64,000 nucleotides of DNA, from assembly GCA_965230975.1 (NCBI GenBank), contig OZ246402.1, positions 800,859-864,858 of the forward strand. The letters run 5' to 3'. The translations under genes and the position numbers were made by a program. Under the pieces are notes generated by a model. That model searched no databases. It had not been told where the DNA came from and was given only the letters and a program-made list of their open reading frames with translations. Shown piece after piece: positions 2,999-63,475 of the stretch. This stretch comes from an uncultured Candidatus Saccharibacteria bacterium. Lineage in GTDB: Bacteria; Patescibacteriota; Dojkabacteria; J137. Positions within the stretch are counted from its first letter, which is position 1; each line of letters starts with the position of its first letter.

Positions 2999-3871
2999 AT
3001 GAATCTAACAAAAGAGCAACAAAATACCTTTATAATGATTACTACTATCTTAATAGTAAGTTTAATTACATTTATTGCAATTTTTAACATTATCTGGGGT
3101 ATTGTGGCACAACCTTTAAACGATGCATTGGGTTCTGTATCCTATTTTCTAAGAACTCAAAATGTAGATTATAACTTTGAAGTTCCAGCAAGTAATAATA
3201 CTCAAGTACAAATAATACAAGAAGATACAAAAGTTTCAGATCAAAATAATACTGCGACTACGGTGCAACAACAATCAGAAAACTATCAAAATGTTACACC
3301 AATTTCAGATGAAGAGGTTAAATCAGAACAACCAAACATAGAAGTTAACTATAACTTTGCTGTGCCAGCTGTTAATACAAACAATGCCGCAATAAACTTT
3401 GAAAGCTATCCAGATGCAATTCTTACAGACGCCATGTTAGCGGGTTATGGATCCGGGTCTGGAACACCTCAAGTAAATTTACAGATTATTATTCCAAAGA
3501 TAGGAGTAAACAGTCCTGTTCTTCAAGGGTTAGGTGCAGATGATTTACTAGAAAGAGGTTTTTGGACGTATCCAGGATCTTATACTTTGGGTGAGGGTGA
3601 AGTTGTAATGTTGTGTCACAGAAGATATTTTGGACCATACGACCCAAGAAGTTGTTGGTTTTTAGATAAAGTTGCAAAAGGTGACGAGATTATAATGAAG
3701 TACGCAGATGTATCTTTAAAATATGAGATTGTAGGGGTTAATGTATTTGATGCAAATGATCCACTAATCTATTCAATTTCTGATACCGATGATTACATTA
3801 AAATAGTAACTTGCACACCTCTATATTCAAATACTCAAAGATTAGTAGTTTTAGCAAAAAGAGCGAATTAA
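2999..3871 (+). CDS. sortase-family transpeptidase, membrane anchored
   Basis: N-terminal TM helix. His in VMLCHRRYFG, catalytic Cys in IKIVTCTP (TLxTC-like), Arg in QRLVVLAKR. Confidence 0.75.
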   Translation: MNLTKEQQNTFIMITTILIVSLITFIAIFNIIWGIVAQPLNDALGSVSYFLRTQNVDYNFEVPASNNTQVQIIQEDTKVSDQNNTATTVQQQSENYQNVTPISDEEVKSEQPNIEVNYNFAVPAVNTNNAAINFESYPDAILTDAMLAGYGSGSGTPQVNLQIIIPKIGVNSPVLQGLGADDLLERGFWTYPGSYTLGEGEVVMLCHRRYFGPYDPRSCWFLDKVAKGDEIIMKYADVSLKYEIVGVNVFDANDPLIYSISDTDDYIKIVTCTPLYSNTQRLVVLAKRAN

Positions 3872-7358: not shown

Positions 7359-8126
7359 ATGAACGAATATGCTTTAATTACCGGAGCGTCAAGTGGAATT
7401 GGATTAGCGTTAGCTTATGAATTTGCAAGTAAAGGTCATAATTTAGTCCTTGTTGCAAGGACTGAAGATACACTCAAAGAAGTTGCAAAAGCATTAGAAT
7501 CGCAATATGCAATTAAAACAGTAATTATCCCCAAAGATTTAAGTAAACCCGAATCGGCAATCCAATTATTTAAAGATATTGAAAAGCAGAATATATACAT
7601 TAAATACTTAGTTAACAATGCAGGAATTGGAGTTGGAGGCAAATATTTAGAATCTAGTATGGAAGATAATGTAAACTTAGTAAATCTCAATATAATTAAC
7701 TTAATAGAACTTACTCACTTATTTGCCAAGAAAATGCTTGCTACGAATGGCGGGAAAGTATTGAATGTTGCATCAATCGCTGCATTTTTTCCTGGGCCAT
7801 ATTTATCTACATACTATGCATCTAAAGCATTTGTATTAAGCTTTACAGAAGGATTAGCTGCAGAATATTCAAACTCTAACGTTACATTTACTGCACTATG
7901 CCCAGGTTTAACAGAATCTAACTTTGGGAAAAGAGCAGGGGTTGAGAAATCAAGCTTTTGGACACAAAAGAAAATGAGTGCCGAAGAAGTAGCAAAAATT
8001 GGGTACAGCGCTATGCAAGCTGGGAAAACTATAATAATTCCAGGTCTAAGTAATAGAATATTTGTAAGCATTGCTAAAAGAATTCCTAGAGCTTTATTAG
8101 CTCAATTTATTAAAAAACTTTTTTAA
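7359..8126 (+). CDS. short-chain dehydrogenase/reductase (SDR)
   Basis: TGASSGIG cofactor motif, NNAG, catalytic YxxxK (YYASK). Confidence 0.85.
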   Translation: MNEYALITGASSGIGLALAYEFASKGHNLVLVARTEDTLKEVAKALESQYAIKTVIIPKDLSKPESAIQLFKDIEKQNIYIKYLVNNAGIGVGGKYLESSMEDNVNLVNLNIINLIELTHLFAKKMLATNGGKVLNVASIAAFFPGPYLSTYYASKAFVLSFTEGLAAEYSNSNVTFTALCPGLTESNFGKRAGVEKSSFWTQKKMSAEEVAKIGYSAMQAGKTIIIPGLSNRIFVSIAKRIPRALLAQFIKKLF

Positions 8127-11463: not shown

Positions 11464-12432
11464 ATGGATAAAAACATCCATTCAATAATAGAAAGAATCA
11501 CTGGGGCGGTGTTTCTAATATTCTTAGGTTGCATACTTTTACTAAACTCAACAGGTGCATTGCCATGGAGTATTTGGGGTAATCTGTTTATGACTTTTTT
11601 TAGAATATGGCCAATATTCTTAATATTTGCAGGGTTTCAAATAATATTTTCTAGCAATAAAATTGCCAAAAGCGTTTTTGATATTGCATGGACAATATTA
11701 ATTATTGGAATATTCTCACTATCTATACTTGCATCTATTGGCAAAATAACATTGCCTGAGTGGACAAATAGTATTGGATGGAATTTAAGCTTTACCAATG
11801 CAAATTCTGTAACTCAAACCCAAGAATTAAAGTTTGAAGATTATCAAGACGTTTCAACTTTAGCTTATGAAATAAACGTACAGGCTGGAGAATTCAATTT
11901 AAGCTCAACTGATAGTTCGAATGCATACCTTACAACTAAGGCAGAATACAAAGAAAATATTGGAACTCCCAAAAGTGTCGTAGAACAAACTGGCTCTGAC
12001 ATGCTTATTAAGTTTTATCAAGAATTTGAAGGGATTGCATTTGGTGCTAGCAATTTCAAATACGATTTAACATTAGATTCTAACGATAAACCTACCAAAA
12101 TAGATGCTCAAGTAACAGCTGGTGATTTAAAAGCAGACTTAAGTCTACTAAAATTAACAGACTTAAAATTTTTAATGACGGCAGGTGATGCAAGAATTAA
12201 AGTAGGAGAAGAGGTTAAAGATATCAATGTTAAAGTAACAGCTGGAAAATTAACTTTATTAGTTCCAGAAATTTATAGACTTGAAATTGATGCAAATTCT
12301 ACAGCAGGCGATATTGATGTAGATGGGAAAGAGATAAATAGCGGTTCTACTGTTATAAACTCAACTGGAGAAAAAACATTAAAACTTGATTTAACTCAAA
12401 CTGCAGGTTCTATTGAAATAGAAAGAATTTAA
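11464..12432 (+). CDS. membrane protein with DUF4097/LiaG-like beta-helical repeat domain
   Basis: N-terminal TM helices, then five repeats of an xTAG(D/K/S) strand motif (VTAGDLKADL, MTAGDARIKV, VTAGKLTLLV, STAGDIDVDG, QTAGSIEIE). Confidence 0.55.
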   Translation: MDKNIHSIIERITGAVFLIFLGCILLLNSTGALPWSIWGNLFMTFFRIWPIFLIFAGFQIIFSSNKIAKSVFDIAWTILIIGIFSLSILASIGKITLPEWTNSIGWNLSFTNANSVTQTQELKFEDYQDVSTLAYEINVQAGEFNLSSTDSSNAYLTTKAEYKENIGTPKSVVEQTGSDMLIKFYQEFEGIAFGASNFKYDLTLDSNDKPTKIDAQVTAGDLKADLSLLKLTDLKFLMTAGDARIKVGEEVKDINVKVTAGKLTLLVPEIYRLEIDANSTAGDIDVDGKEINSGSTVINSTGEKTLKLDLTQTAGSIEIERI

Positions 12433-12452
12433 TTATTTATTAATATTATATT

Positions 12453-13133
12453 ATGAAGTCAGATACTTTAACTAAGCTAATAATTGGAGGTTTTTTAATC
12501 TTCTTAGGATTAGGGTTTTTAGGTGACCAAATACCTGGTGTAAATTTTGGCAGAATCTTTGCAATCTTTTGGCCGGTAGTGGTTATGTTAATTGGCTTAT
12601 ACATTATTTTAAAGACAAGAAGTCAGTTTTTTATTGGATCTATTGTAATGTTGTTGGGAGGGCTTTGGTTAGTAGATCAATTTATTGACTTACCATTTTC
12701 TATTTGGAATTTATGGCCTTTAGTTTTAATAGTTATAGGTTTAAGAATAATTTTCCCTGGTAAGGGTGGTAAATTTAACTATATTAACTCAAGTACTGTA
12801 ACAGACGATACTTTTGAATCTACAGCGGTTTTTTGGGGAGATAGTAGAAAAATAAAAAGCGAAAATTTAAAGATGGGTAAGATTACAGCAATTTTTGGAG
12901 GGAGTGAAATTGACTTAAGAGATGCAAATATTGCAAAAGATGGTGCAAATGTCGAGATTGTGGCAATGTTTGGTGGTGTTAGTGTTAAGGTTAACGAAAA
13001 TACTTTGGTAAAAAGTGATGGGTTAGGTGTATTTGGTGGATTTGAAGATAAATCTGCAAAACCAGCTAAGCCAAATGGGACAATAGTTATTAAAGGTTCT
13101 GCAATTTTTGGTGGAGTAGAGGTGAAGAATTAA
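12453..13133 (+). CDS. LiaF-like cell-envelope stress protein (DUF2154-type C-terminal domain)
   Basis: Four TM helices, then AIFGGSEIDLRDA, VAMFGGVSVKV and AIFGGVEVKN repeats. Confidence 0.6.
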   Translation: MKSDTLTKLIIGGFLIFLGLGFLGDQIPGVNFGRIFAIFWPVVVMLIGLYIILKTRSQFFIGSIVMLLGGLWLVDQFIDLPFSIWNLWPLVLIVIGLRIIFPGKGGKFNYINSSTVTDDTFESTAVFWGDSRKIKSENLKMGKITAIFGGSEIDLRDANIAKDGANVEIVAMFGGVSVKVNENTLVKSDGLGVFGGFEDKSAKPAKPNGTIVIKGSAIFGGVEVKN

Positions 13134-13169
13134 TAGATTTATTTGATTCTAGGATTTCTTTAGAAATTT

Positions 13170-13203
13170 ATACCGTCTCGATTTATCGAGACGGTATTTT
13201 TTT
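13170..13203 (+). terminator. rho-independent terminator
   Basis: 12-bp perfect stem ATACCGTCTCGA / TCGAGACGGTAT, loop TTTA, followed by T7. Confidence 0.75.
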
Positions 13204-13221
13204 GAAGAATATGCGAAAAAA

Positions 13222-13509
13222 TTAGGACTCTTTACTATTTGGAATAATAACTAGACCTAATTCTGTTGATCCATCAAATTTAACATCAAAGTCCTCTTGT
13301 GACACAGGTGTGCCTAATAGGTTTGGAGATTGGGCCATTTCTGTTTGTATACCCATTGCGGTTCTCCATCTTAAAAGAAATAAAGTTCTAATAAATTGTA
13401 TTCTTTTCTCATCAGGTAAATTCAATATATCCTGTTTATCTTGAGCACTTAAGCGTGCAAACATTCGCATTGCACTCTCGTCATTAAAAAATGAGGGGAA
13501 ATCTTCCAT
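13222..13509 (-). CDS. hypothetical protein
   Basis: 95-codon ORF between the terminator and a divergent intergenic region. No motif recognised. Confidence 0.4.
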   Translation of the reverse strand: MEDFPSFFNDESAMRMFARLSAQDKQDILNLPDEKRIQFIRTLFLLRWRTAMGIQTEMAQSPNLLGTPVSQEDFDVKFDGSTELGLVIIPNSKES

Positions 13510-13588
13510 AATTCTAAATTAAATATTATATATAATATAGCATATCAGATTTAACCCATATAACTTAAATTATTAGTAATTAGTTCTT

Positions 13589-13675
13589 AACACTACATAA
13601 ACAGTGTCAAAACAGTGCTAAATCTGGTTGATTTTAGGTCGGATTTAGCACTACTTCAGCACTGTTTATGTATCC
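13589..13675 (+). repeat. copy 1 of a ~88-nt imperfect palindromic element
   Basis: Outer arms TACATAAACAGTG / CACTGTTTATGTA and inner arms AGTGCTAAATC / GATTTAGCACT. It lies 66 nt upstream of the GNAT ATG. Confidence 0.8.
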
Positions 13676-13740
13676 ATCTAATTGTAATATTTCAAATAAG
13701 TTCATTTAACAAAATAGCTATAAATTAAATCTTTACTATC

Positions 13741-14475
13741 ATGTATAATTACTATATGGGTAAACTCTCAATAAAAATTGCATTCACAGAGGATGAATAT
13801 CTAGAATTCTACAACATTTATACAGATGCATTTAAAAATGAACCTGACGAAATTTTTAGCAAAGAAGAAGTACTCAAGTGGATAGATGAAACGGAAGACT
13901 ATGCAAATACCAAAATCTTTTTACTTTTAAAAGACAATATAACAGTTGGATTTGCAATATTGATGCATAAAGATGGAATAGGAAACATACCTTGGGCTGG
14001 AATAAAGTCCCAATATCAGGGCCATGGATTATATTCTCAATTTATTAACCTAATGATAGATACTATTTTTAATGAGTTAAACATTAATATTCTTACAAGA
14101 GAGTGTGATAACCCAGAAGTATTAGAAGGCAATGTAAAAAAGTTTGCTATAAAAAGATTGTCTATGTTTAGAGAAAAACTAAATAGTAAATTTTATAATA
14201 ACAACGAGTTTGTATATTTTAGAGAAGACCCTAAATCACCAAACGAAAGAACTTATAAGTACTTGTTTGGATTCACACTATTAAAACCTAATTCAAACTG
14301 GGAAATTACTAATAATAAAGTTAGTAAAAAAGATTTTAAGAAATTAGTTCAATATAGAATTTTCTTTGAAAGAGGTATTTTTGAAATTGAAAAACAATTA
14401 CAAAGTAACCCGGTTGTTAAAGATTTATACCAAGAGATTGATAACTTGAAAGAGGAGTATTTAACTATAGAATAA
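13741..14475 (+). CDS. GNAT-family N-acetyltransferase (putative)
   Basis: VGFAILM beta strand followed by a Q/RxxGxG/A-like motif, QYQGHGLYS. Confidence 0.5.
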   Translation: MYNYYMGKLSIKIAFTEDEYLEFYNIYTDAFKNEPDEIFSKEEVLKWIDETEDYANTKIFLLLKDNITVGFAILMHKDGIGNIPWAGIKSQYQGHGLYSQFINLMIDTIFNELNINILTRECDNPEVLEGNVKKFAIKRLSMFREKLNSKFYNNNEFVYFREDPKSPNERTYKYLFGFTLLKPNSNWEITNNKVSKKDFKKLVQYRIFFERGIFEIEKQLQSNPVVKDLYQEIDNLKEEYLTIE

Positions 14476-14476
14476 A

Positions 14477-15439
14477 TCAAAAGCTTGCTACCTTATTCTT
14501 AATTAATTCTTTTATAGATTCTAATGAATCTATATCATAAACAGAGCAAGTTAATACATCTTTATTAACCATTTTTAATTCTTTTAATTTTTGAGCAACT
14601 ACATCTGGTTTTACTAAATCTGTTTTAGTTAACAACACAACTTCTGGCTTGTTATATAAATCCAAGTCAATATTCTTAAGCTCAGCTCTAATTTTTTTGT
14701 ATTCTTCAACAACGTTTTCGTTTTCACAACTTACTAAGTGCATAACAAACTTTGCACTTCGGGTATGTTTAACAAAACTTGTACCTAAACCTTTACCTTC
14801 AAAGGTGCCTTCAATTAGTCCCGGCAAGTCCATAATGGTGATTCCGTTAAGTCTACCTAGTTGAGGGTTTAAAGTTGTAAAGGCGTAAGATGCAACTTTG
14901 CTTTGTGCGTTTGTAATCGAATTTAACAGTGAGGACTTGCCGGCGTTGGGAAACCCTATTAAAAGCACATCACTATATAGTTCTAATTCTAAATTGGCAT
15001 CTAAAACTTCACCTTCTTTTCCTTCATCAGATCTATGCAAATTTTCAATTCCTTTTGTTCTGTAAAAATGATTACCTAAACCACCAAGGCCACCCTTTAC
15101 TATTAATTCTCTTTGTCCATCTTTAGATATAGAAAATAATAAATTGCCGTGTTTATCATAAATGTTCGAGGTTAAAGGAACCTTCATTATAATATCTTTA
15201 CCGTTTTTTCCTGTAAGATTTTTGTCACCTCCTGGTTGGCCGTTTTCTGCTTTGATTGTAAAGTCTAAGTATATTGAGTTTAAATCATAAGTAATTGCAG
15301 ATCCTTCTACATAAATGGAACCACCATTGCCCCCAATTCCTCCTTCTGGGTTTCGACCTTTGTAAAAGGCAATGGCTCCGTGGCCACCTTTGCCGGCAAT
15401 AAATTTTAATCCTATTTTGTCTTTAAATTTTTTATCCAT
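14477..15439 (-). CDS. obg: GTPase Obg/CgtA (short form)
   Basis: Gly-rich Obg fold (GGHGAIAF, GGNGGSIY, GGLGGLGN), G1 GFPNAGKSS, G3 DLPGLIEG, G4 TKTD. Confidence 0.9.
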   Translation of the reverse strand: MDKKFKDKIGLKFIAGKGGHGAIAFYKGRNPEGGIGGNGGSIYVEGSAITYDLNSIYLDFTIKAENGQPGGDKNLTGKNGKDIIMKVPLTSNIYDKHGNLLFSISKDGQRELIVKGGLGGLGNHFYRTKGIENLHRSDEGKEGEVLDANLELELYSDVLLIGFPNAGKSSLLNSITNAQSKVASYAFTTLNPQLGRLNGITIMDLPGLIEGTFEGKGLGTSFVKHTRSAKFVMHLVSCENENVVEEYKKIRAELKNIDLDLYNKPEVVLLTKTDLVKPDVVAQKLKELKMVNKDVLTCSVYDIDSLESIKELIKNKVASF

Positions 15440-15649
15440 AATTAATCTTATTGAAAATATTTAGTTACCGATTGTTGTATTTCTATAGGGTGCTACTATA
15501 ACATATTTACTTAATAAGTAGGATAGCAGATTTAAACAAAAATAGTAATTCAGTTTACAGTAAACTATAAACTGTTTTAAATTAAATAAAATTATCCTTA
15601 AATTGTGTAAGTGTTAATTTTCCTAGATAATAAGTCTGTTTTTTAAACG

Positions 15650-15738
15650 GTCATTACAGAAACGGTGCTAATACAGTGCTAAAACAAAGCTAAAAACGGT
15701 CAAATTTAGCACTGTTATGACACTGTTTATGTAGTGTT
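15650..15738 (-). repeat. copy 2 of the ~88-nt palindromic element (inverted relative to copy 1)
   Basis: The reverse complement begins AACACTACATAAACAGTGTCATAACAGTGCTAAAT, and by hand alignment about four fifths of positions match copy 1. It lies ~210 nt upstream of the obg ATG. Confidence 0.8.
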
Positions 15739-15820
15739 ATGAGATACAACATTAGCTAAGTTCTTAGTTTAAGTATCAATATTTGTTTGGAGAGATAAAA
15801 CATCTCAAATATGAAGATAT

Positions 15821-15845
15821 AAAACTGCCAGCATTTCGCTGGCAG
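15821..15845 (-). terminator. rho-independent terminator downstream of the heliorhodopsin gene
   Basis: 8-bp GC-rich stem CTGCCAGC / GCTGGCAG with a 5-nt loop. On the minus strand it is followed by TTTTATAT. Confidence 0.6.
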
Positions 15846-15879
15846 TAATTTATCTTCAACAACTAGGATTTAGCAAATA

Positions 15880-16656
15880 TTATTGTGGCCTTAAAGTTCC
15901 GCTAAAGATTTGCCAAGCTAGGGCACTTTTAGCAACCAAACTTAAGATTATGTACATTCTTTCTCCAAAAATATAGCTTTTCCATGGTCCAACTTTTTTG
16001 TATTGCAAGAACATGTTTAAAGCAAATATATTAAAGAAAATGAATATAGAAGCCAAGATTGCGTATACAAAGCTTGGAATATTTGTACTTACAGATTGAA
16101 CTGCTCCGTAAAAATACATTCCAACTGCAACCCAAGGCACTATTCCTGCAAAGCAACCGAAAATGTAAGATGTCCAATTTGTTTTTTCTGTAGTTTGATT
16201 ATGAAGTTCCATCATTAAACCAAATAGGTTCATTGTTGCGTTTAAAGCAAATATTAAAATCAAGCTTGGTAAATCAAACATTCCGCACAATATTGCGATT
16301 GCTACAATCATTACGCTAGAACTTAATGCGTATTCGTACCATCTTAAATAGTTGATTTTCTTTTTTAAGTTTTTAACATACCATTCGTTTATTCCAGGCA
16401 ATATTATTAAAAAGTGAAAGAATGCAGATAAGAATAAGAATACTGCTATAAATTGACCTAGATTTAGTTTTAAAGCCTCTTGTGTCACCGGTAAAACTGT
16501 TCTTGCTTGAATATTAAAGTCTAGATATGTTGTTGTTAGTGGTATTTGAAAGTCTTTACTAACAAGCAACATCGCAATTCCTTGCACCAAGTGCAACACA
16601 AACATTACCGCATTGAATATGCGTAAGTTCTTAAATGTACGAGCTTCTTTATCCAT
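15880..16656 (-). CDS. heR: heliorhodopsin
   Basis: Seven TM helices with long collinear matches to the prototype HeR 48C12 as I recall it: RWYEYALSSSVMIV (counterion Glu), FGCFAGIVPWV, and LSLVAKSALAWQIFSGTL (retinal Lys). Conserved His residues sit in VLHLVQG and AFFHFLI. Confidence 0.9.
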   Translation of the reverse strand: MDKEARTFKNLRIFNAVMFVLHLVQGIAMLLVSKDFQIPLTTTYLDFNIQARTVLPVTQEALKLNLGQFIAVFLFLSAFFHFLIILPGINEWYVKNLKKKINYLRWYEYALSSSVMIVAIAILCGMFDLPSLILIFALNATMNLFGLMMELHNQTTEKTNWTSYIFGCFAGIVPWVAVGMYFYGAVQSVSTNIPSFVYAILASIFIFFNIFALNMFLQYKKVGPWKSYIFGERMYIILSLVAKSALAWQIFSGTLRPQ

Positions 16657-16688
16657 AAATGGAATAAAAATAATAGGTAAGTACTATT

Positions 16689-16717
16689 ATGGTAGATAAA
16701 TGCGGGAGGGAAGTCAA
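16689..16717 (-). promoter_or_regulatory. promoter candidate TTGACT-17-TACCAT for the heliorhodopsin gene
   Basis: Read on the minus strand, the -10 ends 32 nt upstream of the ATG at 16656. If real, heR has its own promoter. Confidence 0.3.
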
Positions 16718-16729
16718 ACTTTAAAAGGC

Positions 16730-17305
16730 TTAACCTTCTTTATTTAATTTATATTGTTCGTAAACTAAATCTTCTTCTTTTGCAGAGAGTAGATTCATCG
16801 ATTTTAATCCAGTAATAATTTCTAAAATTCCTTTTTTGCCTATTCCTATTACAGGAAACTCATCTGTACCATGCAATAACTGGTATTTTACATAACCCAC
16901 TAAATGATATTTCTTTCTTTTTAAAACATTATGATAAATTGTAGATAGATTTAATGTGTCAATACTTACAGAAGGGTATTTCTCACTATTATTTTCACCT
17001 ATCAAGCTAATTATAATTGACTCGGTGTTTTGTATATTTACGGTTTTTAAGACTAAACCCGCTTCTAATCTATCTATATACCCTCTGTTAAACAAATTAA
17101 CTATTAGGTCTTGATATGATTCTCTAAACCCACCTGGAATATCTACAAGACCACCATTTCTAAAGTATCTTAGTCGTTTTAGTAAATCAGCAATCGTATA
17201 AATCCCTTTAGATTTTAAATGATCAATAAAATTATCTGGTAGTTCTAAAACTGCAATATCTAAATTTGTATCTTTATTTTGTAAGTAATCTGGTTGTGAA
17301 CTCAT
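16730..17305 (-). CDS. protein with two RNA polymerase alpha-CTD-like helix-hairpin-helix modules (short paralog)
   Basis: LELPDNFIDHLKSKGIYTIADLL and LNLSTIYHNVLKRKKYHLVGYV...IGIGKKGILEIITGLKSMNL follow the RpoA CTD pattern LxLSVRxxNCLKxxxIxxIGDL...NLGKKSLxEI. Confidence 0.65.
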   Translation of the reverse strand: MSSQPDYLQNKDTNLDIAVLELPDNFIDHLKSKGIYTIADLLKRLRYFRNGGLVDIPGGFRESYQDLIVNLFNRGYIDRLEAGLVLKTVNIQNTESIIISLIGENNSEKYPSVSIDTLNLSTIYHNVLKRKKYHLVGYVKYQLLHGTDEFPVIGIGKKGILEIITGLKSMNLLSAKEEDLVYEQYKLNKEG

Positions 17306-17339
17306 TTTATGGATATTAACTTGGTTGCATACTACTTTT

Positions 17340-18251
17340 CTATACTTCTAAAGGAATATCATATTTAGCTAATATTTGGATAAACTGATCTTGAGTAATA
17401 TACCCTTTCTGAATTAATTGGCTTGCTATCTCTTTAATTGATTTTTTTGAAAATTGGTTTAAAAGTAGTGGAGTTGATATTTCAAGCAACATGAATTTAA
17501 TCTCACCAACTGTGTGGTAACCATTTATGAATAAATTAAAGTGTAAACTTGAATCTAAGGATAGCGCACCCAATGGAATTTCCGGATATTCCTCGCTTGT
17601 ATTGGCTCCTAATAACCTAATTAAATCCAATTGTCCTGCACCTCTATTTAAACACTTAATGTATACTTCGGCTTCTATTCTGCTAAATAAGTTCATTTTA
17701 TAAAGTTTAGCAATACAGTCGCTAAAATCGTAAGGTGTAGAACCATTATCTATTCTTATTCCTCGCTTGACTAAAGACTTTAGAAGGTCCATAAGTTGAC
17801 CGACAGTATTAATATTGCTTTGATTGACAAGGCTTTGTAAGTCCTCATTTAAATCTAGCACACTTACATTGAGGGCTGCTGCATCTTCAGGGGATATTGG
17901 TTGACTTAGTAAGTAGTCTTTAAAGTCTGCTACTGTTAAGGTGGCAATATCGGGCAAAGTTTGTTGTATATCTGAAAGTAGTCTTATAACTTGTGCATGC
18001 TTTGTGGTATCTACTTCACCTTCATTTGCCAATACTTGGATTTTTGCTAATGCTAATGCTTTTATTGCTGGGAATTCCGGATTGATATTTGGGTTATTTG
18101 CTACATAGTTAAGGTAGCTAGCTATTGATATATCTGTAAAGCCGGCATCTAGTAATTGTTTTATTTGTAATTCCAAAACTGTATTACTTGTTGGGGGGAT
18201 TACATCCGGATCCTGTAATCGTGTATAAACTGGGAAATGCTGAAATGCCAT
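17340..18251 (-). CDS. alpha-CTD-like double-module protein (long paralog 2)
   Basis: The C-terminal ~190 aa are collinear with ORF 16730-17305 (RIEAEVYIKCL, LLGANTSEEYPEIPL, LSLDSSLHFNLFINGYHTVGEI). I prefer the ATG at 18251 over GTG 18287 because it aligns with the N-terminus of paralog 1. Confidence 0.6.
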   Translation of the reverse strand: MAFQHFPVYTRLQDPDVIPPTSNTVLELQIKQLLDAGFTDISIASYLNYVANNPNINPEFPAIKALALAKIQVLANEGEVDTTKHAQVIRLLSDIQQTLPDIATLTVADFKDYLLSQPISPEDAAALNVSVLDLNEDLQSLVNQSNINTVGQLMDLLKSLVKRGIRIDNGSTPYDFSDCIAKLYKMNLFSRIEAEVYIKCLNRGAGQLDLIRLLGANTSEEYPEIPLGALSLDSSLHFNLFINGYHTVGEIKFMLLEISTPLLLNQFSKKSIKEIASQLIQKGYITQDQFIQILAKYDIPLEV

Positions 18252-18353
18252 ATCAAGTTGAGTAATATGTATACTCGATATTAACACCTTGTTACTAATT
18301 TAGACAATCAGTTTTGTCATATCTTTTGCGTAACAAAGGTGGATAATTATTAG

Positions 18354-19286
18354 TTAGGCCTCAATTTCAAATCTGGCATATATTTCTTTTTTGTAATCTT
18401 CCTCCGATTTCTCATCATCTTTAAAATATCCTTTAGATATTAAAGCCTCAGTTATTCCTTTTATTCCACTTACCCCTATATTCTTAACATTGAATTCAGG
18501 GCCTCCAAATAAAAGCTCGTGTTTAACTTCTCCTATAAAAATATAACTACCTCTCATTAAAGCATTATATGTTCTTCTAGGAAGATCTAATTCAGATATA
18601 TCTATAGAAGGGAAACTTTCACTATTATTAGCTCCTATCAAGTTATCTACTTGACTCTCATCAGGAAATCTTGCAATAAATCTTAAATACAAACCTGCTT
18701 CTATTCTAGATATATAATTTAATTCAAATAGTTGAACTACTAAATCTATAAAAACTGGGTTATTCATAATACGACTAGCAAACTGGTAATCTTCTCTGAT
18801 TGTTCTTAAGAGCTGTACTAAATCTGAAATATTTTGAACGTTTCTTGATTCTAAAAGTGCTCTTAATTCTCCACTAGGTCTAATCATTTCGATTGAATCT
18901 TGTAAGTTGCCTGGAATTCCTGATTGCATTGTGGATTGATATATAAAATCCAAAAAACTTTCAACTGTTAGTGCTGATAAGTCTTCTGAGTTATCGTAAG
19001 CATATTGTAAAAGTGCGTTTAATTTTAAATAGTTTGATTCTTCAATATCACCTTTCTGTACTAATTGTTTTATTCTAAGTAAAACTACAGAAGTTATTGC
19101 AGAGTAGGTGGATTTATCTATTGATTCTAAGTTTTGTAAGTATGCAAAATATAAACTTATTTGAATATCTTCAAAATCGTTTGCTAAGATTTGAGATATA
19201 AGAGCTAAAAGATTATCTGCATGAATCTTTACATTTTCTGGTAAATCTTCAGAACTTAAGTAATTGTTTAGAGCTGCAAATACCAT
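18354..19286 (-). CDS. alpha-CTD-like double-module protein (long paralog 1)
   Basis: ELDLPRRTYNALMRGSYIFIGEVKHELL...NIGVSGIKGITEALISKGY closely mirrors the RpoA CTD. An upstream degenerate module reads ELRALLESRNVQNISDLVQLL. Confidence 0.65.
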   Translation of the reverse strand: MVFAALNNYLSSEDLPENVKIHADNLLALISQILANDFEDIQISLYFAYLQNLESIDKSTYSAITSVVLLRIKQLVQKGDIEESNYLKLNALLQYAYDNSEDLSALTVESFLDFIYQSTMQSGIPGNLQDSIEMIRPSGELRALLESRNVQNISDLVQLLRTIREDYQFASRIMNNPVFIDLVVQLFELNYISRIEAGLYLRFIARFPDESQVDNLIGANNSESFPSIDISELDLPRRTYNALMRGSYIFIGEVKHELLFGGPEFNVKNIGVSGIKGITEALISKGYFKDDEKSEEDYKKEIYARFEIEA

Positions 19287-19359
19287 ATTTTTAAAATAAT
19301 ATGCGGAATGTTAGCATTAATGGACAGATTTTATCAATTTGCAATGTTTGGAAGGGCAG

Positions 19360-20187
19360 CTAAAGTTGAACCTCTTTATTTTTGTACCTTAAAAGTGAAA
19401 GCGCAACCAAAATTACAATTGCGACAATCATTACAATTATATTTTCTGGCTTTAAACTACTAGTCTTGGTAATTCCATTTAAATCTAAATAATAGAACGG
19501 TGTTAAATACCGTACAAATTCTGGAAAACCTGGAATTCGCGATAACGTATCTACCATAAAAGAGCCTAGAGTTAATGCTAAACCTGCAAACAAGGCAACA
19601 CCTTCTGACTTAACTAACCCAGCAAACATGGCAATTACACTAAATAGTATTTGAACTATAAAGCCTGCGCTAAAAGCAGCAAAAAAGAATTGAGGATAAA
19701 ATGCGTTTTCACTACCCAAAAACTTAGAAGACAAACTAGAAATTAATAGCACAACTAAATTACTTATTCCAAGCAGTACTACAAAAGCTGCAAATTTAGT
19801 TAAGAATATGTTTTGTCTTTTAATCTTTTTTAAAAACAATATAAATACAGAACCATCATTTAACTCTTTAACAATCATTCTGTTTAAAATATAGCCGCCA
19901 ATAATCGAGTTGATTATTATTAATGTAGATAAAAACTTTGTGTTGTAATAGCCTTTAAATTCAACCAACGTTTTAGCATCAGATCCAAATGCCTCTAGTA
20001 GTTCTGGAGGGAATCCTTTTAAGACTTCTGTTAGTTGAGCTGCCTGCTCTTTGATTGTTCCAAACAATGCTATTAACATTACAGCCATAGAGGCGAATAT
20101 TAATCCCCAAAAGATCATTAACTTTAAATGTCTTTTAAATTCAAACATAAAGACCGTTGTGGATTTGTTTAGTTCTGTTTTATTCAT
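19360..20187 (-). CDS. ABC-2 type transporter permease
   Basis: Six hydrophobic helices. Overlaps the upstream ATPase gene by 8 nt. Confidence 0.7.
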   Translation of the reverse strand: MNKTELNKSTTVFMFEFKRHLKLMIFWGLIFASMAVMLIALFGTIKEQAAQLTEVLKGFPPELLEAFGSDAKTLVEFKGYYNTKFLSTLIIINSIIGGYILNRMIVKELNDGSVFILFLKKIKRQNIFLTKFAAFVVLLGISNLVVLLISSLSSKFLGSENAFYPQFFFAAFSAGFIVQILFSVIAMFAGLVKSEGVALFAGLALTLGSFMVDTLSRIPGFPEFVRYLTPFYYLDLNGITKTSSLKPENIIVMIVAIVILVALSLLRYKNKEVQL

Positions 20188-21058
20188 AATATTTCATAAA
20201 AATATCTTCTAGTGTTGGGTGTTCTATATAAAAGTCTGTTATGTCGTTTTCAAATAGAGTAGTTACGTCCTTTTTTACATCGCTTGTTAAGATTATGTAG
20301 TCTCCATTATCGTTTTGGGTTATTCCTTTTTTGAATATGTTTCTTAGTTTTTTAGATTCTTTGCCAAATTCTATTCTTATTTTTTTAGAATCTCCGTTTA
20401 GCACTTTTTTGGTGTCTCCTTCCATTAATATTTTGCCGTCTTTTATTAGTATTATTCTGTCTGTTATTTTTTCTACTTCTGATAGTACATGAGAGCTAAA
20501 GAATATTGTGCTGCCTGTTTTTTTTAGTTCTGTTAGTTCTTTTAGTACTTTGTTTTGCATTATTGGGTCTAGTGAGTTTGTTGGTTCGTCTAGTATTAAT
20601 AGTTTTGGTTTATGTTGTAATGCATTTACTATTGCTACTTTCTTTTTATTACCTAATGATAGTCTTCCAAACTTTTTGTTTAAATCTATTTCAAAGCTTT
20701 GTATTAAATGGTCAAAGTATTGTTTATCAAAGTTTTGGGATAATGATGCTGAGTAGTTTAGTATTTCTTTTACCGTTAAGCTTGTTGGAAATGTTGGTTC
20801 TCCTGGTAAGAATCCTATTTGTTCTATTACTTTTTGTAGATCTTCTAATGTTGTTATTTGCTCTCCAAACAGTTTATAACTCCCACCTGTTAGATTGGCA
20901 AAACCCAATATTGTTCTTATTGTGGTTGTTTTGCCGGCGCCGTTTGGGCCTAAGAATCCTACAATTTCGCCTTTGTTTAGCGTTATGTTTATGTTAAAGG
21001 CTCCTTTGTTGTTTGTGTATGTTTTGGTTAGGTTTGTGGTTTGTAGTATTGGGTCCAT
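20180..21058 (-). CDS. ABC transporter ATP-binding protein (ABC-2/DrrA-like)
   Basis: Walker A GPNGAGKTT, signature LSLGNKKKV, Walker B LILDEPTNSLD, H-loop SSHVL. Confidence 0.9.
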   Translation of the reverse strand: MDPILQTTNLTKTYTNNKGAFNINITLNKGEIVGFLGPNGAGKTTTIRTILGFANLTGGSYKLFGEQITTLEDLQKVIEQIGFLPGEPTFPTSLTVKEILNYSASLSQNFDKQYFDHLIQSFEIDLNKKFGRLSLGNKKKVAIVNALQHKPKLLILDEPTNSLDPIMQNKVLKELTELKKTGSTIFFSSHVLSEVEKITDRIILIKDGKILMEGDTKKVLNGDSKKIRIEFGKESKKLRNIFKKGITQNDNGDYIILTSDVKKDVTTLFENDITDFYIEHPTLEDIFMKYYE

Positions 21059-21159
21059 TTATTTAGTATATTCCTAGTTACTTCTCTTGGCAATTTTTGT
21101 TTTTACGTTTTTAGTTAAGGGTAAATAGATGATATAATACATCGATCTTTTAGCAATAT

Positions 21160-21235
21160 GGTGGTTGTAGCTCAATGGTAGAGCACTCGCCTGTGGAGCG
21201 AGGTGTTGTGGGTTCGAGCCCCACCAACTACCCCA
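21160..21235 (+). tRNA. tRNA-His (anticodon GUG) with encoded G-1 and CCA
   Basis: G-1 followed by acceptor GTGGTTG/CAACTAC, anticodon arm CTCGC-CTGTGGA-GCGAG, T arm GTGGG-TTCGAGC-CCCAC, discriminator C, CCA. Confidence 0.9.
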
Positions 21236-24152
21236 AATTTGATTCTTCCCATTCTTTTTTATACTCGTAGTAATTAGGTGATCTATTCTCAATAAAAGTG
21301 TTCAGAATTTCCTCAATTTTATCGGCTGGCTCTTTAAATTCAATTAACTTTTTAACGGCCTGATCCATATGGTCTGAAGGATTTAGACCCTTTGGATAGT
21401 TAGCTAAATAATCCATCCATTTTATGAATTCTTCTTTACCTGCTTTATTTAATATTTTCAGTAGGATGTCTCCATTCTTGTAAAATGGCCACCAATTCAA
21501 CTGTGATAAATCATTTTGACCTTTAAAGAACTTTCTCTCATTAATAATACACTTAGTCCAAAGTGAGAAGCATTCTGTGAATTTCTCATCAATATTCTCT
21601 TCTATGAAATAATAGATTCTTTCATAGATTTCGTGATTATAAACTTTTGTGAATTTCTCTAAATATTTAATAGCAATTTTAAAATTTTCATTATGATGCG
21701 ACTTATCTGATCCTAGTCTCCAGAAATTCCATGCGATATTTACTTTAATACTCTCAGAGGAATTTTCCATCAAATCAAACAATATGCTTTTGAATGGCTT
21801 ATCATTAAAGGTGTTGACTTTGTACCAATAGTCCTTACCCAAAACTGCTTCAAAAGCTTTGGATTTATAAGCTTTTGCTCTAAATTCCGCATAGAAGATT
21901 ATCAATGGAAGGAAGTGGTCTATAACTACCTCATAAGGTGATTTACTTGATCTGTTATTGTATACATTTGTCAAAGGTAAATTCAATATTATATTTACAA
22001 ATTTCATTGCTTTATCCTCTTCTATACTCCTCATAAAGCCAAAAACGTTAACTATAGACTTCATTAATTCCATAACAGATTGATTATTTTTATCTACTAG
22101 CATATCAAAAGCGATTGATTCTATTTCTTGTGCTAGTTCGAATGAAATAAATCTTTCAACAGGCATAATATTTGGCATTTTTGTATGCCTGTTTTTCGCG
22201 AGTTCAGTTAAAGGTACGCATGCTTGCATTCTTACATAGTAACTTGAATCTTGAGATAAAATCCTTACAAGTTTCGTAACTTCAGCTAAATAAGCCCGCC
22301 CACTTAAATTACAAAAATATAACAATGCCCAAGCACAATAACCCCTAACTGTTGTAATTATTGAAACTTCATTTTCATTTTTAAGCAAATCTAATTCAAC
22401 ACTATCCTCATGAATTGGATCTTTATCTTGAATAAATATTCTTATTAACTTTAAAGACTCATCAAAAAACTTATTTCTTGCCAATTTCTCAGCAAGTTTA
22501 ACTATGTTTTGTCTTGCTAAATTTTCGCTAAAGAATTGTTCAATTTGAGCAATATTATTATCATATTTAGTCAGTATTGGATCTAATACCCTATAAACCT
22601 GTATAAATAAATCCGAATCATCAGGTATGTAATCAATAATACTAGTAATTGAATTTTGTTGATTTGGAGTTAGTGTTACTTCGTTTAATATATTACTTAT
22701 AAGTGTAGTACCCTTATTTATATCTTTTTGAAGTATGGTAACTAACAATCTCGAAAATTTAAATACCTCAAAATGTTCTGTTTCGATCTTAAATTTATCA
22801 GTATTAACATAGTTGGTTAGGGCATCGATGCCTTCGTCAAAACTTATATCCGAACTGATTAATTTACTTATTATCTCAAACGGATTGAAGCCCCAATGAC
22901 CATGTCGTTTCAAATAAGTAGAGTTATTTAACCAGACTTTTAATATCTCATTTGCTTCAGTATTACCTTCAGCAGCAAGGTCTGACACGATTTGCTCAAC
23001 AAACACATTTGCCGGTGCTCCGTTATATCCCTTTATCTTTAACTGTTCTTTAACATAGTCTAATTTTACTGTGCCAGAAAGTTTCTTTGAGTTTCTAAGT
23101 GCCTGAAAAATCAATTCTGTTTTATAAGGGATTCCACTTCTCATCAGAATAAACTTCTTAAGAATATATTTAGTTTCTTTGACATACTTATCTTCTTCTA
23201 GATTCTGAATTAGTAAAGGAATAACAGCTCTATTAAGAAAATCTGGCCTTTTTGTGTTAATCTTTTTCTCATCAACCTCTATCAAATTTTCTTTTATATA
23301 ATTCCAGGTTTCATCATCGAACTTATAAAATTCTTCAAGAGCTGGAGTTAGTGCATACATCACAAAGTGCCTATCAAATAGAGAATGTTCATCATTCAAA
23401 CTTGATATTCCAGCACCCATATGTTCCCATCCTTTAAATCCATCTTTTATACCTATTCTCTTATAGTCTTGTTTATACTGCTTGACTATAATCTTTTTAA
23501 TTTTTAAGAAATTACTTTCAAAATCGAGATTAATATAATTCCTGAGAATAGTGAATACTGTTTTAGGAGTATATAAATCATATTCTCCATCACCAGCTAC
23601 TAAGTTAAAATATTTATCAAGTAAGAAAACAATCTCTGCTAATTCTTCAATCTGATTAATCATTTTAGATGAAGCATTTCCCAATAATTCTGCAACTTGT
23701 ATTTTTTCGTGCTCTAATTTATTTCTATGATCTAAGGATTTATAGCTATGTCCTCTATGTGTTAGTACTATTTTAACTATAGTAATTAAGTCATTATATT
23801 GTAGTAAATTATTATTAAACATCGTATTTAATGTATGAAGAAGACTATTTGATTCAAATTCAAGAAAGCCATCTATATTATTGACGAGAAGTTCAAGGAA
23901 AAACGACTTGCCTATTTGTGGATAATTATCCTCGAGTGTTTTTAAGACCAAAAAATATTCTCGATTTTTAATCAAGAAGTCTATTAAACTGATAAAAATT
24001 TCGTTATTAAAGTTATTCGTAAGTTCTTTTAGGTAGTATCTTAGCATCATAGGATCATGTACGATCTCGTTAAGAGATGCAATATCTTTCTCACTTAGGT
24101 GCTGTTTGTCTAAAGTTTCTTTTATTTTTGATATTTTATAGAGCTGGTTCAT
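21228..24152 (-). CDS. 974-aa all-helical repeat protein (HEAT/ARM-like), unknown function
   Basis: No TM helix or signal peptide. It shows a repetitive amphipathic helix pattern, and VRGYCAWALLYF...YVRMQACVPLTELAKN resembles HEAT repeats. The 3' end overlaps the tRNA-His 3' end antisense by 8 nt. Confidence 0.6.
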   Translation of the reverse strand: MNQLYKISKIKETLDKQHLSEKDIASLNEIVHDPMMLRYYLKELTNNFNNEIFISLIDFLIKNREYFLVLKTLEDNYPQIGKSFFLELLVNNIDGFLEFESNSLLHTLNTMFNNNLLQYNDLITIVKIVLTHRGHSYKSLDHRNKLEHEKIQVAELLGNASSKMINQIEELAEIVFLLDKYFNLVAGDGEYDLYTPKTVFTILRNYINLDFESNFLKIKKIIVKQYKQDYKRIGIKDGFKGWEHMGAGISSLNDEHSLFDRHFVMYALTPALEEFYKFDDETWNYIKENLIEVDEKKINTKRPDFLNRAVIPLLIQNLEEDKYVKETKYILKKFILMRSGIPYKTELIFQALRNSKKLSGTVKLDYVKEQLKIKGYNGAPANVFVEQIVSDLAAEGNTEANEILKVWLNNSTYLKRHGHWGFNPFEIISKLISSDISFDEGIDALTNYVNTDKFKIETEHFEVFKFSRLLVTILQKDINKGTTLISNILNEVTLTPNQQNSITSIIDYIPDDSDLFIQVYRVLDPILTKYDNNIAQIEQFFSENLARQNIVKLAEKLARNKFFDESLKLIRIFIQDKDPIHEDSVELDLLKNENEVSIITTVRGYCAWALLYFCNLSGRAYLAEVTKLVRILSQDSSYYVRMQACVPLTELAKNRHTKMPNIMPVERFISFELAQEIESIAFDMLVDKNNQSVMELMKSIVNVFGFMRSIEEDKAMKFVNIILNLPLTNVYNNRSSKSPYEVVIDHFLPLIIFYAEFRAKAYKSKAFEAVLGKDYWYKVNTFNDKPFKSILFDLMENSSESIKVNIAWNFWRLGSDKSHHNENFKIAIKYLEKFTKVYNHEIYERIYYFIEENIDEKFTECFSLWTKCIINERKFFKGQNDLSQLNWWPFYKNGDILLKILNKAGKEEFIKWMDYLANYPKGLNPSDHMDQAVKKLIEFKEPADKIEEILNTFIENRSPNYYEYKKEWEESNLG

Positions 24153-24759
24153 TTATATTTTCTATATTAGTATTGATTGGATTTTCTATATACTTTTTTA
24201 TTTGAGGATCATTAGCATTACTTGGAAATCTGTCATCTCTTAAAATATTACAAATTCTTCTAAAATCATCAACATTGAATTTATAGTTTTGTGAATATTT
24301 TTCGTTGTAACAATGAATTGTTGACTGAATTTTTCTTGCTATGTCTCGACCATTTGCAAAACGAAAGAAAAGATACCCTCCATTAATACGACTAAGGATA
24401 TGTAACTTGGCTGCATGGTTAAAATCACCCGAAGTAACAATATACAATTCTCCAAGTTTACCAGCATCATGCAACATTGTGAATTCATTGTTAAGCGCCT
24501 CACTTGCCTGATTACAAACTGTCCGAATATCCTTATCCGTATTTCCACTTTTTACAATATCTTCAGCTTTTAATAAAACACCTCCTATTAAACGATCAGA
24601 AGAGTAGAAATCACAAAAAGTATAAAGAATATCAACTCCATTTTCGGAGTTACCGTGATTATCTTCAACAAAATGATAGTTGACTTCATACAATGGGATT
24701 ATAACCTTTAACCTCAGAGTATTTTCGTCTAAATGTTTTATCTCATCTTCAATTGACAT
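24136..24759 (-). CDS. Mrr-cat/PD-(D/E)xK-like restriction-endonuclease-fold protein (putative, atypical active site)
   Basis: The element order matches Mrr_cat: helix ...IIPLYE, GVDILY (Asp), GGVLLKAED (xxK strand), then ELYIVTSGDFNHAAK (compare ITTSxFTxxA). The position usually held by E/Q is Leu. It overlaps the downstream gene by 17 nt. Confidence 0.45.
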   Translation of the reverse strand: MSIEDEIKHLDENTLRLKVIIPLYEVNYHFVEDNHGNSENGVDILYTFCDFYSSDRLIGGVLLKAEDIVKSGNTDKDIRTVCNQASEALNNEFTMLHDAGKLGELYIVTSGDFNHAAKLHILSRINGGYLFFRFANGRDIARKIQSTIHCYNEKYSQNYKFNVDDFRRICNILRDDRFPSNANDPQIKKYIENPINTNIENINEPAL

Positions 24760-35182: not shown

Positions 35183-35312
35183 AGAAAGAGTGAAAACTAT
35201 ATCTGTATTTATTTATATTATATTTCAGATATATAAAATACCTAGTTAATTTCAATTCAATTAATAGTTGAGAGTAACATTTAAATTAAAACAACTCTTA
35301 AATAGTGAAAAA

Positions 35313-44876: not shown

Positions 44877-44877
44877 A

Positions 44878-62926: not shown

Positions 62927-63475
62927 ATGACCGATTTATTAGAACCTAAATTCACTTCTGTACAATTTGGAGAAGAGGAATTACCTTTACTAAGAGTAAT
63001 GGTAGATGAAGCTTCAGATGTTCCATTAACTATTCAAGACCTAGAAACAGCGTATAGTGCTTCATCTGAAATTTTTTACATACTACAATTGTTTCAAGAT
63101 GCTTATCACTTATCAGACGAAGGTTTATGTGAGGACTTTTCTATAACTAACGAAGATGGAACTAGGTCATTCTTTAAATTAGATCAAGAAAATTTAGTTA
63201 ACTACATGCTAGAGAATTCAAATTTGAGGGATAAGGTTTTTGATGTGTTAACAAGAAATATGTCTTATATAGAAAGTTTAATAGAGTTGTTAAGGTTAAT
63301 TGATAGTAATTCATTAAATATTAATTTTGTTATTACAGAAGAGGGTGATAAATTTATTAACAGACTGAAAAGAGAATTACCAATTTTTATACTTGCTCAC
63401 AACAAATTGTCTCAAATTGCTAATCAATTTGCGGAGGCATTAAAATTCAAGTTAAAAATAAGAATCGAGGCTTAA
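62927..63475 (+). CDS. hypothetical acidic protein
   Basis: 182-codon ORF divergent from the 678-aa gene. Confidence 0.45.
   Translation: MTDLLEPKFTSVQFGEEELPLLRVMVDEASDVPLTIQDLETAYSASSEIFYILQLFQDAYHLSDEGLCEDFSITNEDGTRSFFKLDQENLVNYMLENSNLRDKVFDVLTRNMSYIESLIELLRLIDSNSLNINFVITEEGDKFINRLKRELPIFILAHNKLSQIANQFAEALKFKLKIRIEA

Follow-up and report, generated by a model that had tools for sequence, protein, structure and literature searches.

The open reading frame (ORF) at positions 15880-16656 of the window, by which we mean the whole stretch of 64,000 nucleotides analysed here, is almost certainly a genuine full-length heliorhodopsin (HeR). The gene lies on the minus strand and runs from ATG to TAA, stop codon included, and its product has 258 amino acids. 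By analogy with the characterised members of the family, we think that this protein is probably a functional, orthodox heliorhodopsin, that is, a non-pumping photosensor dependent on scavenged retinal. Heliorhodopsins in Dojkabacteria and other CPR bacteria have already been published (PMC9166423), and the protein in the window is canonical and, in this sense, ordinary; the retinal auxotrophy of CPR and of HeR-only organisms has been published as well. The only non-trivial points are the strong constraint on HeR within a reshuffled neighbourhood, and the peculiar array of adjoining genes whose products resemble the C-terminal domain of the RNA polymerase alpha subunit (alpha-CTD).

An earlier note, made from the letters of this DNA, had called for a profile search, and that search, now run, assigns the product to the heliorhodopsins by two models. 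Pfam PF18761 is matched along its whole length (positions 1-242 of 242) with E=1.1e-99 and 333 bits, where the cut-off is 26.7, and the NCBIfam equivalog NF038020 ‘heliorhodopsin HeR’ with 348 bits, against a cut-off of 100, over positions 1-244 of 244; it is by such an equivalog model that the NCBI pipeline names proteins of this kind. The best solved relative is TaHeR (PDB 6is6; E=1.4e-77, 50.0% identity), while the prototype 48C12 (6su3/6uh3) is matched with E ~1e-63 and 45.6% identity. Since both models are matched over their full profiles and TaHeR is matched as well, the ORF cannot be put down to chance.

The earlier note had also claimed that the product is collinear with the prototype and that it retains the Schiff-base lysine, the counterion glutamate and both conserved histidines, and each of these claims holds in the alignments. 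The protein aligns to 48C12 over residues 6-257, and in the re-indexed structure alignments 29 of the 31 positions of 48C12 that we checked are identical. Residues H23, H80, E107, S237 and K241 of 48C12 correspond to H22, H81, E108, S239 and K243 in the window, so that the histidine pair, the counterion and the Schiff-base lysine are all found in register. E108, the single counterion glutamate of TM3, sits in RWYEYALSS (residues 105-113), and K243, the Schiff-base lysine of TM7, sits in SLVAKSALAW (residues 239-248). The stretch S239-L-V-A-K243 satisfies the S-x-x-x-K motif of heliorhodopsins, as opposed to the D-x-x-x-K of type-1 rhodopsins (PMC9166423). The other identical positions, in the numbering of 48C12, include R104, W105, N101, N138, E149, P172, W173, Y226, E230, W246 and Q247. 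The two positions that differ are F162, conservatively replaced by Y164, and Q213, replaced by M215; TaHeR has both replacements. The residues of the lateral fenestration are kept too (Y164, C168, G171, F208, N209 and A212, at 48C12 positions 162, 166, 169, 206, 207 and 210), where the motif for the fenestration, which is also the proposed carotenoid-binding site, is the one defined in a recent preprint (10.1101/2025.11.27.691015).

The predicted orientation of the protein places the N-terminus inside, as is definitive of the family, and a positive-inside count fits this orientation, with 14 lysines and arginines on the predicted cytoplasmic side versus 4 outside. Hydropathy finds six of the seven transmembrane helices, and the protein is collinear with the solved heliorhodopsin structures over all seven. 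We thus predict a seven-helix protein of inverted topology, with a cytoplasmic N-terminus.

Comparison with individual members of the family brings the window's protein closest to TaHeR, from the Thermoplasmatales archaeon SG8-52-1 (PDB 6is6/7u55), with 50% identity over residues 4-257. The two have in common the counterion glutamate, the histidine pair, the S-x-x-x-K motif, the fenestration tyrosine and the methionine at the position of Q213 in 48C12. They differ in that TaHeR is archaeal, whereas the present protein comes from a CPR bacterium and has an external loop between TM5 and TM6 that is five residues longer. The prototype 48C12, from which the protein departs at the two replaced positions named above, is the most distant of the compared sequences in a rough neighbour-joining tree. 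The closeness to the crystallised TaHeR makes the protein an easy target for expression.

In the same neighbour-joining tree, which is rough and carries no support values, the protein falls in a tight clade together with named Dojkabacteria metagenome-assembled genomes and unlabelled metagenome relatives at 80-98% identity, while another Dojkabacteria HeR falls with other CPR sequences. Identities to the window's HeR within the Dojkabacteria clade span 79% to 97-98%. The nearest named relatives are recorded as ‘heliorhodopsin HeR [Candidatus Dojkabacteria bacterium]’, at 79% identity, and include the complete 1.17-Mb genome CP129475.1, which is also the top match (79%) in a search of genome contigs. 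A protein identical to that of the window is recorded on an NCBI contig of 1,193,217 bp. The host thus belongs to the Dojkabacteria (Patescibacteria/CPR) and has a genome of about 1.2 Mb, and the description of that genome as AT-rich and reduced-looking, which had been offered from the letters, is borne out by the sizes just given and by the GC content of the window (32%). The names of the Dojkabacteria relatives, together with a sortase gene at 2999-3871 in the Pfam scan of the window, fit a monoderm CPR cell. Seven Dojkabacteria HeRs stand among the 115 CPR rhodopsins catalogued by Chiriac et al. (2022; PMC9166423), in which SLVAK is the commonest motif. The present protein resembles the catalogued Dojkabacteria HeRs (PMC9166423; CP129475.1) in its bacterial class, its SLVAK-type motif, its 79-86% identity and its place in a tight clade.

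How strongly the gene is maintained can be gauged by comparing it with its counterpart in a closely related strain, L008. The two HeRs are 97.3% identical in amino acids and 90.2% in nucleotides, and their codons differ by 61 synonymous and 7 non-synonymous changes, which corresponds to dN/dS of 0.03 at dS of 0.59. Codon comparison and tree, taken together, show that strong purifying selection acts on HeR and that a Dojkabacteria clade has retained it vertically, and the low dN/dS marks it as a maintained functional gene. Such selection in a genome of some 1.2 Mb is further evidence that heliorhodopsins matter to reduced, probably host-dependent cells that scavenge their retinal.

This bears on the idea that HeR is a decaying or silent relic of horizontal transfer, useless for want of retinal. 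One could cite in its favour that no retinal pathway is in view and that the neighbourhoods of HeR are shuffled between relatives. Against this, the ORF is intact with all its key residues, dN/dS is 0.03 at the dS just given, the GC content of the gene (32.6%) is that of the window (32.2%), and HeR is retained across the Dojkabacteria clade; we regard the idea as barely credible. A pseudogene or relic is rejected on dN/dS, and a recent foreign acquisition is likewise rejected, by the agreement in GC content and by the Dojkabacteria-specific clade.

The source of the chromophore must be considered separately. We scanned with Pfam 47 ORFs of the window, namely all non-overlapping ORFs of at least 100 amino acids except 62927-63475, plus one ORF of 95 amino acids; the NCBIfam scan also took in ORF 62927-63475 and eight ORFs that have no Pfam match. 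Among the scanned ORFs of the 64-kb window we find no BCD/Blh (PF15461), no RPE65/carotenoid oxygenase, no phytoene synthase of the SQS_PSY type, no phytoene desaturase of the amino-oxidase CrtI type, no lycopene cyclase and no type-1 rhodopsin, nor does any of the 14 checked ORFs without Pfam match look like a polytopic membrane protein, in which a Blh-like enzyme could be hidden. The statement that no genes for retinal synthesis are in view therefore stands for the 64 kb covered by the two scans.

The lack of blh and crt genes in these 64 kb is what the literature leads one to expect. As a rule, HeR genes have no blh close by or elsewhere in the genome (bioRxiv 10.1101/2021.02.16.431466; PMC9296517): blh is seldom found beside a HeR gene or in genomes whose only rhodopsin is a HeR, and where the two do co-occur, type-1 rhodopsins are mostly present in the genome too (bioRxiv 10.1101/2021.02.16.431466). 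Rhodopsin carriers among the CPR have no blh, and their retinal is thought to come from hosts (PMC9296517). The type-1 rhodopsins of Saccharibacteria, the SacRs described in that paper, are similar to the present case in having a CPR host and no blh (for the window, within 64 kb), which implies chromophore auxotrophy; they differ from it in that they belong to the type-1 family, pump protons outward and lie in the membrane the other way round. The passage of PMC9296517 that cites work on TaHeR gives its host as having no retinal pathway, and the TaHeR apoprotein as rapidly taking up external retinal through an opening. Since a retinal pathway is found neither in the window nor in CPR genomes generally, the chromophore is most likely scavenged. 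A retinal pathway may also lie elsewhere in the genome, or there may be an alternative pathway, as has been proposed for some Actinobacteria.

The sequence of events that we propose for the non-pumping photosensor is modelled on these relatives. By extension from TaHeR, 48C12 and some ten other tested prokaryotic HeRs, the protein would sit in the membrane with its N-terminus inside and would bind all-trans retinal at K243, with E108 as the counterion. The retinal would be scavenged, either from the surroundings or from a host cell, and would enter through the lateral fenestration formed by Y164, C168, G171, F208, N209 and A212, as shown for TaHeR. Photoisomerisation would then lead to a long-lived signalling state, presumably with no pumping of ions, and the basic cytoplasmic loops, rich in lysine and arginine (ICL1, residues 87-106, and ICL3, residues 219-234), may pass the signal to a partner protein. 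Retinal binding, photocycle and lack of transport are thus extrapolated from relatives that are 45-50% identical. The cytoplasmic loops of HeRs are the means by which they regulate their partner proteins (PMC11109279). The OcHeR-OmrDE, HeR-glutamine synthetase and HeR-photolyase pairs (PMC11109279 and references therein) make it plausible that the window's protein, with 14 lysines and arginines predicted on its cytoplasmic side, also modulates a partner through basic loops without pumping. The ‘sensor/regulator’ output remains generic, however, since the partner is not identifiable from the gene context.

A different kind of output would be energy capture or ion transport, with HeR acting either as a light harvester that uses retinal and a scavenged xanthophyll, or as a proton transporter like the viral V2HeR3. 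Light harvesting with a carotenoid antenna has been argued for most HeRs (preprint 10.1101/2025.11.27.691015), and the window's protein also carries the antenna motif proposed there: the pattern of the carotenoid site is present in the aromatic pair Y164/F208, the small residues C168 and A212, and G171. Such a role would, moreover, be of benefit to a CPR cell with few means of building up a proton gradient. But the antenna idea is derived from docking and from motifs in the sequence, and it names no energy-conserving output. No proton pumping was found in any tested HeR (bioRxiv 10.1101/2021.02.16.431466), the prokaryotic HeRs tested so far show no pumping (same preprint; PMC11109279), and the window's protein is closest to TaHeR, which does not transport. 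We consider a role in energy capture or transport unlikely.

We turn now to the transcription of the gene. An intrinsic-terminator-like hairpin on the minus strand, at 15824-15846, has a stem of 10 bp with 6 G-C pairs, followed by TTTATATCTT. It lies 34 nt past the stop codon of HeR and separates HeR from the gene of the Obg GTPase (14477-15439). The claim that HeR has its own terminator, placed in the earlier note at 15821-15845, is right as to the terminator-like pattern, which is real. The related loci L008, L009 and L006 each have a different hairpin 3′ of HeR, with a T-run, as read by eye, in L008 and L009; on account of these hairpins we take HeR to close a transcription unit across the clade.

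The evidence at the 5′ end is of another kind. The spacer of 73 bp 5′ of HeR contains the promoter-like site TTGACT-17 nt-TACCAT (16689-16717, minus strand; 9 of 12 matches). The region has fewer promoter-like matches than its shuffles, and the promoter scan alone is weak evidence. The site is identical in L008, and it recurs as TTGACT-17-TAACAT in L006, whose HeR is 83% identical; what gives the site weight is its conservation in L006 only. In L006 the upstream gene is divergently oriented, and the HeR of that locus must therefore have a promoter of its own. The possibility of a separate promoter, raised in the earlier note, is strengthened in this way, and HeR probably does have its own promoter, as far as such sequence signals indicate. 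Read-through from upstream genes into HeR is nonetheless possible, since the scan of the window finds no terminator-like site between HeR and the gene for a 191-aa protein upstream of it. The field's strict definition of an operon requires spacers of <10 bp (PMC8612252), and by that definition HeR, with its spacer of 73 bp, would stand alone.

The genes directly upstream are the most peculiar feature of the locus. At 16730-19286, on the minus strand, lie three paralogous genes for soluble proteins of 191, 315 and 310 aa, which are 25-39% identical to each other and contain helix-hairpin-helix modules like those of the RNA polymerase alpha-CTD. The C-terminal halves of the paralogs are alpha-CTD-like, and the 191-aa protein matches Pfam PF03118 with E=2e-7. 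Used as the query of a word-indexed homology search, that protein finds nothing but itself. In an exhaustive profile search, the matches beyond the family are multi-alpha-CTD proteins and otherwise single alpha-CTD modules, and of 1.84 billion cluster representatives (50% identity) only five are full-length members of the family itself, all of them tied to the lineage of the window. An AlphaFold model of the 310-aa paralog, built from five sequences, reaches pLDDT 70-90 over residues ~130-310, and is usable only there; compared with the PDB by Foldseek, its top matches are alpha-CTD chains, with TM-scores up to 0.84 on the target and E-values that are all at least 0.5 and hence not significant. 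The single-sequence model of the 191-aa protein has a pLDDT of 44 and is unusable.

Three further loci carry the array: L008 (8340-9897), L090 (1078-2996) and L091 (4-1136). There are two copies in L008, and the first slot, which can also be absent, is filled by the 310-aa protein, by a divergent protein of 305 aa in L090 or by one of 231 aa in L091. dN/dS is 0.47-0.76 for the alpha-CTD-like genes, versus 0.03 for HeR and 0.08 for the ABC transporter genes further upstream. The array looks like a rapidly diversifying cassette.

It is tempting to read this arrangement as a lineage-specific module in which HeR provides the light input, and binds or releases the three adjacent alpha-CTD-like proteins so that they act on RNA polymerase or on promoter DNA. 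The alpha-CTD-like genes and HeR are on one strand with spacers of 34-73 bp, the gap between the 191-aa gene and HeR is free of terminator-like sites, the arrangement is kept in L008, L090 and L091 as far as the contigs reach, and the C-terminal module is a genuine relative of the alpha-CTD by profile search and by the top Foldseek matches. If true, such wiring would be a direct route from a membrane photoreceptor to the transcription machinery, which is undescribed for any rhodopsin; a search of the literature for work combining heliorhodopsins with the C-terminal domain of the alpha subunit found no papers. Several observations speak against it, however. The family is confined to its five full-length, lineage-bound representatives, and the Foldseek E-values are those given above. 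HeR's relatives at 79-86% identity, and some 80 other HeR loci, have no alpha-CTD-like neighbour, and the promoter-like site of HeR is conserved where the upstream gene differs. Lastly, neighbours that evolve as fast as these and vary in copy number, next to a frozen HeR, do not show the pattern of co-adapted partners. We hold such a module to be quite unlikely. The array is linked to HeR by adjacency alone (same strand, short spacers, four strains), and that HeR is wired to it at all seems to us very improbable.

Another candidate partner is an ABC-2-type exporter 2.7 kb upstream of HeR, which consists of a DrrA-like ABC ATPase (20180-21058) and an ABC2_membrane_2 permease (19360-20187), both on the minus strand. 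OcHeR enhances the multidrug transporter OmrDE in the light (PMC11109279), and by analogy HeR could modulate the exporter of the window. The ATPase and permease genes lie upstream on HeR's own strand, the strongest promoter-like site of the region (21093-21065) stands ahead of them, and one of the ten recurrent groups of HeR operons has an ABC transporter upstream of helR (PMC11109279). Yet three unrelated genes separate the pair from HeR, and the transporter is of the ABC-2/DrrA-like type, not of the heterodimeric half-transporter type of OmrDE (PMC11109279). The other Dojkabacteria loci have no orthologous ABC-2 pair near HeR, and in a few of them there is only generic similarity of 22-37% to ABC ATPases. 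Modulation of this exporter by HeR is, in our estimation, highly unlikely.

More generally, the neighbours of HeR change completely from one relative to the next. A tblastn search of 89 HeR loci with the window's neighbours (the alpha-CTD-like proteins, the ABC pair, Obg, GNAT and the 95-aa ORF) matches only L008, besides generic ABC ATPases, and no alpha-CTD-like gene stands beside HeR in the Dojkabacteria relatives whose HeRs are 79-86% identical or in some 80 further HeR loci. Of those relatives, CP129475.1 has a membrane protein of 157 aa and a protein of 208 aa beside HeR, L006 has glycosyltransferases and L009 has still other neighbours; none of them is similar to the neighbours in the window. 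The neighbourhood in CP129475.1 is thus entirely different from that of the window, to which, of these two loci, the alpha-CTD-like genes are confined. BLASTP of the immediate neighbours of HeR in L001, L003, L006 and L009 reveals no shared family.

Nor do known partners appear. The ten recurrent HeR partner genes encode glutamine synthetase (GS), NAD synthetase, photolyase, MerR, TerC, ABC transporter, SDR, alpha/beta hydrolase, DUF2177 and DUF2238 proteins (PMC11109279); none adjoins the HeR of the window, whose neighbours are the alpha-CTD-like proteins and Obg. DUF2177, DegV and DUF1295, which are HeR neighbours in bioRxiv 10.1101/2021.02.16.431466, are not found among the Pfam-scanned ORFs of the window.

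Since the alpha-CTD-like neighbours are confined to one species-level lineage, the locus yields no conserved partner for HeR. The earlier note had valued these unusual neighbours as making the locus useful for a functional hypothesis; they are not conserved beside HeR outside that lineage, and on this comparison of gene content the locus is a weak basis for such a hypothesis. For the search for partners by genomic context this is a negative result: members of one and the same Dojkabacteria clade retain HeR, but the genes around it have been reshuffled completely. The same observation suggests that a partner of HeR, if there is one, has its gene at another place in the genome or belongs to the core components of the cell.

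The reshuffling can be followed in individual genes. A family-2 glycosyltransferase and a CBM5/12 protein are encoded at 55418-59319 of the window and at 11778-15689 of L006, with 73% and 62% amino acid identity, respectively. In L006 these orthologues lie 1-5 kb from HeR, whereas in the window they are 39 kb away, which marks the neighbourhood of HeR as reshuffled.

Differences are also found between the window and L008. Positions 11464-21239 of the window, compared with 6388-15118 of L008, diverge in a mosaic, with dS values of 0.07 (191-aa gene), 0.18 (ABC ATPase), 0.30 (permease) and 0.59 (HeR). On the right-hand side of HeR, amino acid identity is 84.6% for Obg, 60% for GNAT, 61-79% for the LiaF-like proteins and 33% for the 95-aa ORF, and the Obg and GNAT genes have swapped positions between the two strains. 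The mosaic divergence and the sharp drop in identity suggest recombination breakpoints around HeR. At the other end, where 21161-24759 of the window is compared with 1-6466 of L008, the tRNA-His is 100% identical and the genes beyond it are completely different: the window has ORFs of 974 and 207 aa with no Pfam match, and in L008 one finds an AAA_15 protein and five genes without annotation. The stretch adjoining tRNA-His is probably an island that varies between strains.

Some other genes of the window deserve mention. Short-chain dehydrogenases of the SDR type could in principle interconvert retinol and retinal. The SDR gene of the window (7359-8126, plus strand) is 7.7 kb from HeR and on the opposite strand; only distant loci, L036 for instance, have an SDR gene directly 3′ of HeR. 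The plus strand at 11464-13133 encodes two LiaF-like membrane proteins in tandem (LiaF-TM; DUF4097 ‘toastrack’), whose position is kept in L008; they form a module for cell-envelope stress that is not obviously linked to HeR. At 35268-47838, also on the plus strand, an ORF of 3202 aa with a TTG start has fibronectin-III and purple-acid-phosphatase-N-like domains only near its C-terminus, and is directly followed by a 986-aa fusion of an ABC ATPase with a MacB-FtsX permease; the GC content around this long ORF is 37%, versus about 31% elsewhere.
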